From an uncultured SAR86 cluster bacterium (GTDB taxonomy: Bacteria > Pseudomonadota > Gammaproteobacteria > Magnimaribacterales > D2472), in assembly GCA_902586925.1 (NCBI GenBank), contig CACIJE010000001.1:270104-334103 (forward strand): a DNA stretch of 64,000 bases, given 5' to 3'. The notes below the pieces were generated by a model, which searched no databases, was not told the DNA's origin, and was given only the letters and a program-made list of their open reading frames with translations. Position 1 is the stretch's first letter; each line of letters opens with the position of its first letter. Shown piece by piece: positions 60,408 through 63,834 of the stretch. The position numbers and the translations under genes are program-made.

Positions 60408-60893
60408 ATGAAAGATAAAGGTTATAGGCTAAATGTAGGAATTATTATTGCGAACAAAAAAGGTGAACTATTATTATGTAAAAGAAAAGGTATGAATAGT
60501 TGGCAGTTTCCTCAAGGGGGTATTGATTTTGGAGAAGACTCTCTAAAAGCTGCCAAAAGAGAACTTTTTGAGGAAGTTGGAATTAAGTCAAACTCAGTAA
60601 AATTAATAGACTCGATTGATGATTGGTTAAAATATGATATACCTAAAAAAAGCAGAAGAAAAAAAATTTTTAAAACTAATTTTAAAGGTCAAAAACAAAA
60701 ATGGTTTTTATTTAAATTGAAGGAAGATGTAAAAATATCTTTTGATAATGATCCTGATAATGAGTTTGACAATTTTAAATGGGTGTCCTACTGGTATCCT
60801 CTTAATATAATTATTTCATTCAAAGAAAAAGTCTATAGAGAAGCATTAAATAAATTAAAATATTCATTCTGTAGAGAATTTTATAATGTTTGA
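60408..60893 (+). CDS. rppH: RNA pyrophosphohydrolase
   Basis: GYRLNVGII, WQFPQGGID, Nudix box AAKRELFEEVG, GQKQKWFL, WVSYWYPL, FKEKVY. Confidence 0.96.
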   Translation: MKDKGYRLNVGIIIANKKGELLLCKRKGMNSWQFPQGGIDFGEDSLKAAKRELFEEVGIKSNSVKLIDSIDDWLKYDIPKKSRRKKIFKTNFKGQKQKWFLFKLKEDVKISFDNDPDNEFDNFKWVSYWYPLNIIISFKEKVYREALNKLKYSFCREFYNV

Positions 60894-61674
60894 CGAAGTT
60901 TTAATATTTGGAGTGCTAGGAATTCTTTCTGGACTGTTGGCTGGTATGTTTGGTATTGGAGGAGGGCTAATTATGGTGCCAGTTCTTATTGGCATATTTA
61001 TAAATCTTGGATTTGAAGATGTGATTATTGTTCAACTTGCAATTGGTACATCGATATCATGTATTATCTTTACAGGACTTTCTTCAGCAAATGCTCATAG
61101 AAAAAAAAATTCAATTGATTTTGATAGCTTAAAGCCTGTGGCTTCTGGAATAATATTTGGTGCATTTTTAGGTGCGCTATTTGCGGTTCAAATTGATGGA
61201 TTGATATTAAAAATTACAATTGCAACATTTGTACTAGTTGTTGGTACCGATATTCTTTTAAATAAAGATCTTTTACAAAATATATTACGTCTAAAACCAA
61301 AATCAATTTTTGTTGGTTCAGGAATAGGATTTTTGTCCTCAATCTTAGGCATTGGAGGAGGAACTTTTTCAGTTCCTTATTTTAAGGGTTCTGGGCTCAA
61401 TCTTACCTCTGCAATTGGCACATCAGCAGCATGTGGTGTGCCAATAGCTATTTTTGGCACTTTAGGATATGTTTTTGCAGGCATAAATCAAAATATGTTA
61501 CCTAATTTAAGTTTTGGATATGTATATTTACCAGCTCTTCTTGGGGTCTCTCTAACAAGTATTTTTTCTGCAAAATATGGTGCTGATATAGCTCATTATT
61601 TATCTCAAACAACTCTTAGGAGACTTATGGCGGGTTGGTTTTTTATAATATCAATATATATGTTCATAGTATGA
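60886..61674 (+). CDS. Sulfite exporter TauE/SafE (TSUP) family protein
   Basis: Duplicated GMFGIGGG / GIGGGTF motifs, AIGTS twice; upstream of lgt. Confidence 0.9.
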   Translation: MFDEVLIFGVLGILSGLLAGMFGIGGGLIMVPVLIGIFINLGFEDVIIVQLAIGTSISCIIFTGLSSANAHRKKNSIDFDSLKPVASGIIFGAFLGALFAVQIDGLILKITIATFVLVVGTDILLNKDLLQNILRLKPKSIFVGSGIGFLSSILGIGGGTFSVPYFKGSGLNLTSAIGTSAACGVPIAIFGTLGYVFAGINQNMLPNLSFGYVYLPALLGVSLTSIFSAKYGADIAHYLSQTTLRRLMAGWFFIISIYMFIV

Positions 61675-62468
61675 TAATAGAGCTTTCTAATTTCTTTAAT
61701 AATCCAACTCTAGTTGAGATTGGACCTCTAAAAATTCAGTACTATGCAGTGACATGGTTATTATCTGCATTATTGATTTACGTTTTTCTAAAAAATAATA
61801 AAACCATACATGAAATAGGCCTTAATAAAGATGAAATAAACGATATGGTTTTCTTGTATGGACTATTCTTTGGAGCAATTTGTGGTGGAAGAGTCGGATA
61901 CATGTTCATATACGGAGCAGAACAGTTAATAGATAATCCCTTGTCTTTATTATACGTTTGGCAAGGCGGATTAAGCTTTCATGGTGGCTTAATTGGAGTA
62001 ATTATTAGTCTTGTTATCTTTTGTTACAAGAAAAATATTGAGTTATTAAAATTATTAGATGGTGTTGCTTTAGCAATGCCCATTGGTCTTGGTCTAGTAA
62101 GAATTGGTAATTTTCTAAACGGTGAATTATATGGAAAGGCAACATATGCAGATTGGGGCTTTATATTTCCAACTGATCCTTTTGGAGTTTTAAGACATCC
62201 ATCACAAATTTATGAAAGTTTTGGTGAAGGATTATTATTGTTTTTAATTTTATTTGTGATTAGTAAGCAAACTAATGTAAAAGGCATAGTTTCTTCATCA
62301 TTTCTAATTTTTTATGGGTCAATAAGATTTATAATTGAATTCTTTAGGCAACCTGATGCTCACATTGGTTACATTGCTTTTGACTCATTAAGCATGGGAC
62401 AGATCTTATGTATACCAATGGTAATTATTGGATTTGTTATGTTGCTATATTCAAGGGAAAAAATATGA
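61671..62468 (+). CDS. lgt: Prolipoprotein diacylglyceryl transferase
   Basis: GGRVGY, WQGGLSFHGG, VRIGNFLNGELYG, RHPSQIYE, RFIIEFFRQPD, LSMGQIL. Start reassigned to ATG 61671. Confidence 0.97.
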   Translation: MIIELSNFFNNPTLVEIGPLKIQYYAVTWLLSALLIYVFLKNNKTIHEIGLNKDEINDMVFLYGLFFGAICGGRVGYMFIYGAEQLIDNPLSLLYVWQGGLSFHGGLIGVIISLVIFCYKKNIELLKLLDGVALAMPIGLGLVRIGNFLNGELYGKATYADWGFIFPTDPFGVLRHPSQIYESFGEGLLLFLILFVISKQTNVKGIVSSSFLIFYGSIRFIIEFFRQPDAHIGYIAFDSLSMGQILCIPMVIIGFVMLLYSREKI

Positions 62469-63328
62469 AAGCATACTTAGATCTTCTTCAGTATATATTG
62501 GAAAATGGAGAAGAAAAAAGTGATAGGACTAATACTGGGACAATATCATCTTTTGGGCATCAGTTCGAATTTGATTTAGAAAAAGGATTTCCAGCTGTAA
62601 CTACTAAATCTCTCGCATGGAAAGGAGTTGTTTCAGAACTGCTTTGGTTCTTAGAGGGTTCAGATGATGAGAGAAGGCTTGCTGAGATAAGATTTAATAA
62701 AGATAGATCTGAATTAACAAATTTGGAAAAATACTCAACAATATGGACTGATAATGCAGATAATCAAGGCAAAGAATTAGGATATGAAAATTCAGATACA
62801 ACAAAGATTCTTGGTCCAGTTTATGGCGTCCAATGGAGAAATTGGTGTGGAATTGATCAAATTAAAAATCTACTTAATGACTTGGAAAAAAATCCTGATG
62901 GAAGAAGACATATTCTATCAGCATGGAATGTAAATGAATTAAATAAAATGACATTGCCACCATGTCATGTAATGTCACAATTTTATATACATAAAAATTC
63001 GATTAGTTGTCATATGTACCAAAGAAGTGCAGATATGTTTCTTGGAGTTCCTTTTAATATTGCAAGCTATGCTTTACTTTTATCTATTATTGCTAAAATT
63101 TTAAATCTTAAACCAAAAAGATTTATTCATTCATTTGGTGATGCTCATATTTATAAAAACACTGTTGAGCAAGTAAAGGAACAAATCTCTCGAGAACCTA
63201 AGCCGCTGCCAAAATTAGTACTTCCAGATATTAACTCATTAGATGATCTAAAAAAGACAAACATTAATGATTATGTTTTAGATAATTATGACCCTCATCC
63301 TGCCATAAAGGCAAAAATGGCAATATGA
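62465..63328 (+). CDS. thyA: Thymidylate synthase (T4-phage-like type)
   Basis: DRTNTGT, FPAVTTK, ELLWFLEG, LGPVYGVQWR, LPPCH, YQRSADMFLGVPFNIASY. Start reassigned to ATG 62465. Confidence 0.97.
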   Translation: MKAYLDLLQYILENGEEKSDRTNTGTISSFGHQFEFDLEKGFPAVTTKSLAWKGVVSELLWFLEGSDDERRLAEIRFNKDRSELTNLEKYSTIWTDNADNQGKELGYENSDTTKILGPVYGVQWRNWCGIDQIKNLLNDLEKNPDGRRHILSAWNVNELNKMTLPPCHVMSQFYIHKNSISCHMYQRSADMFLGVPFNIASYALLLSIIAKILNLKPKRFIHSFGDAHIYKNTVEQVKEQISREPKPLPKLVLPDINSLDDLKKTNINDYVLDNYDPHPAIKAKMAI

Positions 63329-63834
63329 ATATTGTTATTTCTCATGTTGTTGCTTTATCAAATAATAATGTCATAGGTGTTGATAATAATCTACCGTGGA
63401 ATCTCAAAACAGACCTAATACACTTTAAAAACTACACAACTAACAAAATAATTGTTATGGGAAGAAAAACATATGAATCTATAGGAAGGCCACTGCCAAA
63501 TAGATTAAATTTTATAGTATCCAAAACTATTGGTGAAATTGAAAATGCATTTGTATTTAAAAGTACGAAAGAGGCAATAGATGCAGCTAAAGAAAAATGT
63601 TTAGGTAACGAAAATTATAATGAAATTGTCATAATTGGAGGTGGTTATCTTTTTAGAGATACTCTTACAATAACAAACAAATTAGTATTAACTTGTGTTG
63701 ACTGCAATATCGCCGGAGATATTTATTATCCAAATATTGATTTGTCTTTATGGAAAGAAAAAAGTTCAGAAAGTTTTTCAAAAAATGAAGATAATGAATA
63801 CAACTTCACTGTAAGAGTATATGAAAAATTTTAA
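63325..63834 (+). CDS. folA: Dihydrofolate reductase
   Basis: IGVDNNLPWNLKTD, VMGRKTYESIGRPLPNR, IIGGG, GDIYYP. Confidence 0.96.
   Translation: MNIVISHVVALSNNNVIGVDNNLPWNLKTDLIHFKNYTTNKIIVMGRKTYESIGRPLPNRLNFIVSKTIGEIENAFVFKSTKEAIDAAKEKCLGNENYNEIVIIGGGYLFRDTLTITNKLVLTCVDCNIAGDIYYPNIDLSLWKEKSSESFSKNEDNEYNFTVRVYEKF

Follow-up and report, generated by a model that had tools for sequence, protein, structure and literature searches.

We analyzed a 64,000-nucleotide stretch of DNA (the window; GenBank contig CACIJE010000001.1, positions 270,104 to 334,103 of the forward strand) from an uncultured bacterium of the SAR86 cluster, one of the uncultured bacterial groups that are most abundant in surface ocean waters. 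The window holds a thymidylate synthase gene, thyA, between lgt and folA. We propose that a ThyA from a subfamily rich in phage members took the place of the native E. coli-type thyA in situ in some ancestor of the SAR86 order and that the incoming gene was inherited vertically thereafter, with a phage as the likeliest ultimate source; we hold this account to be probable, with considerable room for doubt. Thymidylate synthase is an essential enzyme and a classic drug target, and ThyA is in wide use both to flag viral auxiliary genes and to link phages to hosts. Should the phage origin be true, phages would, over long periods, have supplied streamlined marine bacteria with core metabolic genes and not just borrowed genes from their hosts, and the locus would be a clean case of a foreign gene displacing its counterpart within a conserved operon. 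A literature search returned no report linking SAR86 with a phage-type thymidylate synthase. That viruses drive the transfer of thy genes has been proposed before in general terms (PMC2826268), and the SAR86 case adds to that known phenomenon.

The gene and its small-domain segment are as follows.

62465 to 63328, forward strand: thyA, a 287-amino acid (aa) thymidylate synthase of the long-small-domain (ERRLAEI) class, identified by translation, family models and catalytic motifs
62654 to 62812, forward strand: small-domain segment, residues 64–116 (EGSDDERRLAEI...TTKIL), 53 aa, delimited by length and motif comparison

A preliminary description of this DNA, made from its letters alone, had placed a thymidylate synthase at these positions in a lgt-thyA-folA locus and had called it T4-phage-like. 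Translation bears out the identification: the peptides quoted in that description, FPAVTTKSLAWK and GSDDERRLAEIRFNKDRSELTNLEKYSTIWTDNADNQGKELGYENSDTTKILGP, are both present in the 287-aa product, which matches TIGR03284 over its full length (322.6 bits, cut-off 108.35; Pfam PF00303, EC 2.1.1.45) and NF002497 (328.6 bits, cut-off 327), and the neighbors encode Lgt and a dihydrofolate reductase (DHFR). The motifs DRT, PPCH (including the catalytic Cys in P-C-H), QRS.D, PFNI and GD.H.Y were found in the window protein and in all 80 SAR86 homologs, which are the matches listed in one scan of named genomes, SAR86 filling the list; under strict patterns, each catalytic motif is kept in 73 to 80 of the 80. 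Residues R21, E58, Y94, R126/R127, C146, R166, S167, D169, N177, H207 and Y209 (E. coli numbering) all align with counterparts in SAR86 ThyA. An AlphaFold2 model (pLDDT 93.7, pTM 0.92) has the ThyA fold, with Foldseek TM-scores of 0.85–0.89 to the M. tuberculosis, E. coli and human enzymes. Foldseek separated no ThyA subfamilies (T4-like from E. coli-like), since every ThyA scored 0.85–0.89 and the T4 structure, 1TIS, lay outside the top 50. By sequence and modeled fold, the protein is a thymidylate synthase with an intact active site. It would be a working housekeeping enzyme that methylates dUMP to dTMP with methylene-tetrahydrofolate, and FolA, encoded directly downstream, would recycle the dihydrofolate by-product.

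The SAR86 protein differs from the E. coli type in its small domain, defined here as the segment between ELLWFL and LGPVYG. This segment measures 27 aa in E. coli, 42 aa in T4-like Td, 50 aa in a phage-rich class of ThyAs and 53 aa in SAR86, where the length is constant (80/80 sequences). The class bears the signature EGS.DERRLAEI...TIWTANAD.QGK.LGY.N.D..K.L, or in a looser form EGS.[DN]ERRLAE...TIWT.NA..QG..LGY.N....K.L. Over 50 aligned positions, the SAR86 small domain is 60–72% identical to that of the class, and it consists of those 50 residues plus a lineage-specific 3-aa extension that occurs in no phage sequence. With the small domain excluded, the core of SAR86 ThyA is 60–63% identical to the nearest phage contigs, 52.6% to E. 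coli and 49–52% to the T4-likes. Sign tests on the core found the nearest phage contigs closer to SAR86 than E. coli is (p = 0.005–0.03), and found T4-like Td no closer to SAR86 than E. coli ThyA (p = 0.7–0.8). Moreover, the diagnostic core residues A44, S57, L151 and M285 of SAR86 are all shared with the class (4/4) and none with the E. coli type (0/4). Collectively, these comparisons show that SAR86 ThyA, judged on length, signature and core residues, belongs to the long-small-domain (ERRLAEI) subfamily and not to the E. coli type.

The T4 and E. coli motifs given in the preliminary description proved accurate on real sequences: T4-like Td (phages JS98 and mar005P1) has FPAVTTKKLAWK and ENQAKDLGY, and E. 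coli ThyA has FPLVTTK and IWDEWADENGDLGP. T4 Td (PDB 1TIS) and enterobacterial T4-like Td share with SAR86 the motif FPAVTTK.LAWK and an extended small domain, ..TIW..N.ENQ.K.LGY. However, the T4-type small domain (SGSTNVNDLR...ENQAKDLGY) has 42 aa against 53 aa in SAR86 and is only 26–31% identical over the segment, and the C-terminal insertion of T4 Td is missing from SAR86 ThyA when aligned to 1TIS. Overall identity to T4-type Td is 44–48%, with a core no closer than that of E. coli. T4 td carries a group I intron; SAR86 thyA, by contrast, is a single continuous open reading frame (ORF), and it lies in the order rppH-tauE-lgt-thyA-folA, unlike the frd-td-nrdA context of the phages. The description of the protein as T4-phage-like therefore stands for its long small domain, which is typical of T4-superfamily phages, but not for T4-type Td proper as the nearest relative.

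The best match to an isolated phage is the protein of Sinorhizobium phage phiM9 (55.7%), followed by T5-like proteins (51%) and the enterobacterial T4-likes (44–48%); matches to solved structures are nearly equal (Elizabethkingia 278, T4 269 and E. coli 256 bits). The Sinorhizobium phages phiM9, phiN3, phiM7 and phiM12 (51–56% identical to SAR86 ThyA) and environmental T4-like contigs (~61% for the nearest) have the same fold, catalytic residues and long-small-domain signature. Unlike in those phages, the SAR86 gene is chromosomal, lying between lgt and folA and not in a frd-td-nrd module, and its small domain is three residues longer. An exhaustive search of 1.8 billion representative proteins gave no match above 59% outside SAR86, a profile search for the class recovered members up to 61% identical to SAR86 ThyA by BLAST, and the closest non-SAR86 relatives overall are 58–64% identical. 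In a plasmid collection there was no member of the class, every match being at most 48.4% identical.

Trees were computed with our own neighbor-joining (NJ) and likelihood code, using a BLOSUM62-derived model, a gamma shape fixed at 0.8 and an NJ backbone of 37 taxa, on every branch of which the SAR86 stem was tried. With all columns, the likelihood weight ratio (LWR) was 0.55 for positions inside the class and 0.45 for the class stem, and the best placement with E. coli-type sequences was worse by a log-likelihood difference (dlnL) of 74.6 (standard error 22, p ~0.0004). When the small domain was left out, SAR86 fell at the node where the class and the T4/T5 group meet, and E. coli-type placement was worse by dlnL 23.7 (p ~0.02). 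Likelihood placement on all columns and on the core thereby rejected a position of SAR86 ThyA among E. coli-type sequences. The preliminary description had named, as an outcome that would tell against its own proposal, a branching with cellular gammaproteobacterial ThyA that leaves phages out; no such branching was seen. Placement as sister to Arcobacteraceae was worse by dlnL 27.4 (p ~0.004) and appeared in 0% of NJ bootstraps, and placement as sister to the T4/T5 group was worse by dlnL 18 (p = 0.16).

In NJ trees, a clade of SAR86 plus the 50-aa class was supported at 40–51% when all columns were used and not at all once the small domain was removed, and the sister of SAR86 was a subclade of T4-like contigs plus the cellular-looking contig L147 in ~55% of replicates. 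With plain amino acids, E. coli-type sequences were never in the SAR86 sister group among the listed compositions, which cover at least 94% of replicates; after Dayhoff-6 recoding, they were in it in 0.7% (all columns) and 14% (core only) of replicates. These values bear on the most improbable of the explanations we considered, in which AT-rich composition or convergence in a surface loop would give an ordinary gammaproteobacterial ThyA the look of a phage protein. All cellular carriers of the class and many phage contigs are indeed AT-rich, and the core-only signal is weak after Dayhoff recoding. Against such an artifact, the 50-aa segment aligns position by position at 60–72% identity, which is not a compositional effect, the Sinorhizobium phage proteins also have the small domain, and the E. 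coli type is rejected even when likelihood placement uses the core columns only.

Monophyly of SAR86 ThyA was recovered in 99–100% of NJ bootstraps; larger NJ trees (237–270 taxa), with ~0–3% support at most backbone nodes, served for this monophyly alone. The result tells against another possibility raised in the preliminary description, namely that this lineage is itself the donor, SAR86-infecting phages having captured thyA from their host and disseminated it. Acquisition of host genes for nucleotide metabolism is common among phages. Nevertheless, no ThyA from a phage or viral contig nests within SAR86, the best being ~61% identical by BLAST, against at least 72% identity of SAR86 members to the window protein, and the SAR86-specific 3-aa extension is absent from every phage sequence; we consider a donor role of SAR86 very improbable.

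Within SAR86, the gene behaves as a long-term resident. The closest proteins and the 80 named genome loci all belong to the SAR86 cluster, including SAR86A, B and E, and are 72–87% identical to the window ThyA. The order rppH-tauE-lgt-thyA-folA is found at 64 of the 80 loci, the remaining ones showing parts of the same order, and lgt lies directly upstream of thyA in at least 75. Across these loci, the divergence of ThyA from the window copy correlates with that of Lgt (r = 0.96), TauE (0.97), RppH (0.93) and FolA (0.89). Given the conserved gene order, the co-divergence, and the 53-aa domain and intact motifs of all 80 sequences, SAR86 thyA is, as far as comparative sequence data can tell, old, functional and vertically inherited inside SAR86. 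The swap itself would be ancient, since the gene is fixed in all 80 species examined. We also noted that contig L003 (NYXO01000072.1), filed under 'Methanobacteriota archaeon isolate ARS96', encodes a SAR86-type ThyA that shares 87% identity with the window protein; the contig probably comes from SAR86 and was mis-binned.

The genes and junctions around thyA are as follows.

60408 to 60893, forward strand: rppH, RNA pyrophosphohydrolase (47% identity to E. coli RppH)
60886 to 61674, forward strand: tauE, TauE/SafE-family membrane protein between rppH and lgt (Pfam PF01925, E = 4e-45)
61671 to 62468, forward strand: lgt, prolipoprotein diacylglyceryl transferase (TIGR00544, 206 bits)
62465 to 62468, forward strand: ATGA overlap of the lgt stop and the thyA start
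63325 to 63328, forward strand: ATGA overlap of the thyA stop and the folA start
63325 to 63834, forward strand: folA, dihydrofolate reductase (best NCBIfam model, type 3 DHFR)

The flanking genes look native. SAR86 Lgt is 42.8% identical to Lgt of A. baumannii and 37.5% to that of E. coli. SAR86 FolA scores 126 bits against the A. baumannii and 121 bits against the E. coli protein, but at most 93 bits against the DHFRs that adjoin ThyAs of the class (Poseidonibacter, L147, L125 and T4-like contigs), and T4-type Frd is ~25% identical to it. The preliminary description had suggested checking folA for the same signal as thyA; comparison with phage and class-carrier DHFRs revealed no phage affinity, the best scores among the proteins compared being those to FolA of A. 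baumannii and E. coli, and this argues against the transfer of a thyA-folA cassette. The genes between 50.4 and 64 kb of the window encode a FAD oxidoreductase/GCV_T protein, a hydrolase, shikimate kinase, an aminotransferase, RmuC, an ABC permease, RppH and TauE, all housekeeping genes, so that the earlier remark that no other phage genes lie nearby holds for this interval. As to gene order, E. coli has rppH-ptsP-lgt-thyA, and A. baumannii has lgt, two small ORFs, thyA and folA, its ThyA being of the E. coli type and 60% identical to that of E. coli. ThyAs of E. coli and Acinetobacter (264–280 aa) are the same enzyme, encoded in the same slot after lgt; folA comes next in Acinetobacter, and the thyA start is coupled to the lgt stop in E. 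coli. However, their small domain has 27–36 aa with an IWDEWA motif and they are 46–47% identical to SAR86 ThyA. For another E. coli-type representative, P0136, the upstream fragment on its short contig is not Lgt. These comparisons show thyA alone to be foreign, by the likeness of its product, in an otherwise gammaproteobacterial gene string with native flanks.

A further explanation is vertical descent, in which the long-small-domain ThyA would be an old cellular form that SAR86 kept, other lineages lost or replaced and phages captured. The GC content of thyA (0.30–0.32) equals that of its flanks, without compositional anomaly, and the native operon position, fixation in the whole clade and the LWR of 0.45 for a sister position to the whole class are likewise in keeping with descent. 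On the other hand, E. coli and A. baumannii share the locus architecture and have mutually similar E. coli-type ThyAs, the cellular carriers of the class are scattered over three distant groups (Gammaproteobacteria, Alphaproteobacteria and Campylobacterota), and placement near E. coli-type sequences was rejected. We therefore regard vertical descent as improbable. Replacement in place is the simplest reading, because lgt and folA are native and A. baumannii combines the same order with an E. coli-type ThyA.

The class itself is spread over phages and bacteria. Among isolated phages, Sinorhizobium phages phiM9, phiN3 and phiM7 carry it, and the following metagenomic contigs could be assigned to phages by gene content or encode a related variant.

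Contig L139: T4-like phage with gp44, gp62, RegA, gp43, UvsX, gp41, frd and td
Contig L143: T4-like phage with frd-td-nrdA-nrdB-glutaredoxin-dCMP deaminase-SegE-DsbA
Contig L081: T4-like phage with gp44, PolB with an intein, and T4 RNA ligase 1 (Rnl1)
Contig L148: jumbo-phage contig with a ThyA of the class
Contig L084: phage contig with a primase and nrdAB
Contig L127: T4 gp15 and a topoisomerase subunit, with a related 49-aa domain variant (EHRL motif)

Cellular carriers are Poseidonibacter parvus (CP019070), in which the gene lies on the 2.87-Mb chromosome, and other Arcobacteraceae; contig L125, from an AT-rich alphaproteobacterium whose RecA is 69–77% identical to named alphaproteobacterial RecAs; and contig L147 (275 kb, 23.6% GC), which looks cellular (GGDEF, chemoreceptor and PAS genes). 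The Arcobacteraceae ThyA resembles that of SAR86 in being chromosomal, of the same class (56–57% identical) and followed by a DHFR gene; it differs in belonging to another phylum and to a neighborhood without lgt, and it was sister to SAR86 in no analysis. The thyA genes of phage contig L081 (7990–8877) and of L147 (5603–6490) are 85% identical in nucleotides over 893 nt, and it is this similarity that indicates recent or ongoing exchange of this ThyA class between phages and bacteria. The order thyA-folA-nrdA-nrdB on L147 is like a phage nucleotide-metabolism module. All cellular carriers found here are low in GC (SAR86 region ~30%, Poseidonibacter locus 28.7%, L125 26.7% and L147 23.6%), which may reflect either a search bias or a real association.

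The preliminary description had a myovirus thyA replacing the host gene in place. The non-E. coli type and the native flanks agree with a replacement, but the direct donor could have been a bacterium, since at least three other bacterial lineages have the class. Under this alternative, the same replacement took place with another bacterium as donor, and phages were parallel recipients or occasional shuttles. In its favor, carriers in three other cellular lineages all have thyA followed by folA as in SAR86, whereas the T4-like contigs checked (L139 and L143) and phage phiN3 have frd followed by td (phage contig L084, with thyA then DHFR, is the exception), and the 85% identity between the L081 and L147 genes attests to traffic between the pools. 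Against it, sisterhood of SAR86 and Arcobacteraceae was rejected (dlnL 27, p ~0.004; 0% of bootstraps), SAR86 FolA is not close to the FolA of the carriers (at most 93 versus 121–126 bits), so that no thyA-folA cassette is shared, and verified phage carriers outnumber cellular ones and infect very different hosts. We think a direct bacterial donor unlikely, though it is the rival we take most seriously.

Our favored account is thus that the native E. coli-type thyA in an ancestral lgt-thyA-folA slot would have been replaced, in the ancestor of the SAR86 order, by a long-small-domain ThyA of a distinct subfamily known mainly from T4-superfamily myoviruses, and that vertical inheritance in SAR86 followed. 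We infer the direction of transfer, from phage to cell, and the mechanism of replacement; the ultimate source was most likely a T4-superfamily phage, because the class is widespread in such phages of very different hosts, because cellular carriers are few and phylogenetically scattered, and because virus-driven thy transfer has precedent (PMC2826268). In that earlier proposal, a phage origin was also put forward for B. subtilis thyA2 (PMC2826268). The B. subtilis thyA2 and phage phi3T thyP3 pair parallels the present case in being a bacterial thymidylate synthase of attributed phage source (PMC2826268), although the B. subtilis phage-like gene co-exists with a native-type thyA and is near a known phage gene, whereas in SAR86 the gene of foreign type is ancient, sits where the native one would be and lacks a close counterpart in phages.

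Several points weigh against this account. The class is also chromosomal in Arcobacteraceae, L125 and L147, so that a bacterium-to-bacterium route is possible, and a viral or cellular assignment was made for a minority of the metagenomic class members. The nearest relatives are, on present sequences, just 58–64% identical, so that no donor lineage can be named. The LWR is split between a nested position (0.55) and a sister position to the whole class (0.45), the latter of which gives no polarity, and NJ leaves the deep branching unresolved without the small domain or after Dayhoff-6 recoding. Lastly, the trees come from our own code instead of a standard maximum-likelihood package, and the named gammaproteobacterial ThyAs compared directly were two, those of E. 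coli and A. baumannii.

A bolder version can be put forward tentatively, and we would give it rather less than an even chance: at the root of the SAR86 order, a T4-superfamily phage ThyA would have replaced an essential gene ORF for ORF in a coupled operon, as one of several independent recruitments by AT-rich bacteria (Arcobacteraceae, the alphaproteobacterium and L147). A phage-type ThyA might suit a high demand for dTTP or a streamlined genome. In practical terms, a bacterial order with a viral-looking ThyA can mislead viral-contig calling, host prediction and binning.

Upon closer inspection of the gene boundaries, the program-made ORF list was found to hold an upstream ATG for thyA at 62408 (306 aa), 57 nt inside lgt, which is used in the public gene calls of the close homologs P0001 and P0002. 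All ThyA homologs start at MK.YL.., which corresponds to 62465; given this conserved N-terminus, the real start is probably 62465 and the 306-aa calls are probably too long. In the same list the lgt ORF begins at a TTG (61635), and its likely start is the ATG at 61671, which overlaps the tauE stop. The tauE/lgt junction is then also an ATGA overlap (61671–61674), and rppH and tauE overlap by 8 nt (60886–60893). We infer that the compact tauE-lgt-thyA-folA string is probably co-expressed and translationally coupled via its ATGA stop/start overlaps. In E. coli, the lgt promoter drives expression of thyA, and translation of the two genes is coupled (PMC8316002). A scan for promoters and terminators found nothing beyond chance level.

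Some sequences met in the searches were of interest in their own right. In the plasmid collection, L151 (CP035931.1, A. baumannii 'plasmid unnamed1', 1.02 Mb), H147, H154 and H155 are chromosome-sized and carry core genes such as lgt, thyA, folA and msrA, so that these records appear to be pieces of chromosome entered as plasmids. The ThyA of L125 (P0121, L125:4677–5639), whose gene lies in a dcd-thyA-folA-dut cluster, carries ~33 additional aa inserted into the loop after PPCH (...FYVKEMSFNDRLKYFKKKHNIFIKDNNIEKVEELLNSMNVPTKALSC...). Many other ThyAs of the class (metagenomic P0123–P0130, P0135 and P0139) contain an in-frame insert of 195–280 aa right after LGPVYG.QW, at a point equivalent to about residue 125 of the window ThyA, near position 62840 of the window. 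The insert matches no Pfam family but does match phage 'HNH endonuclease' PHROG families (phrog_2081, E ~1e-45), and it looks like a homing-endonuclease-type mobile insertion inside the enzyme.

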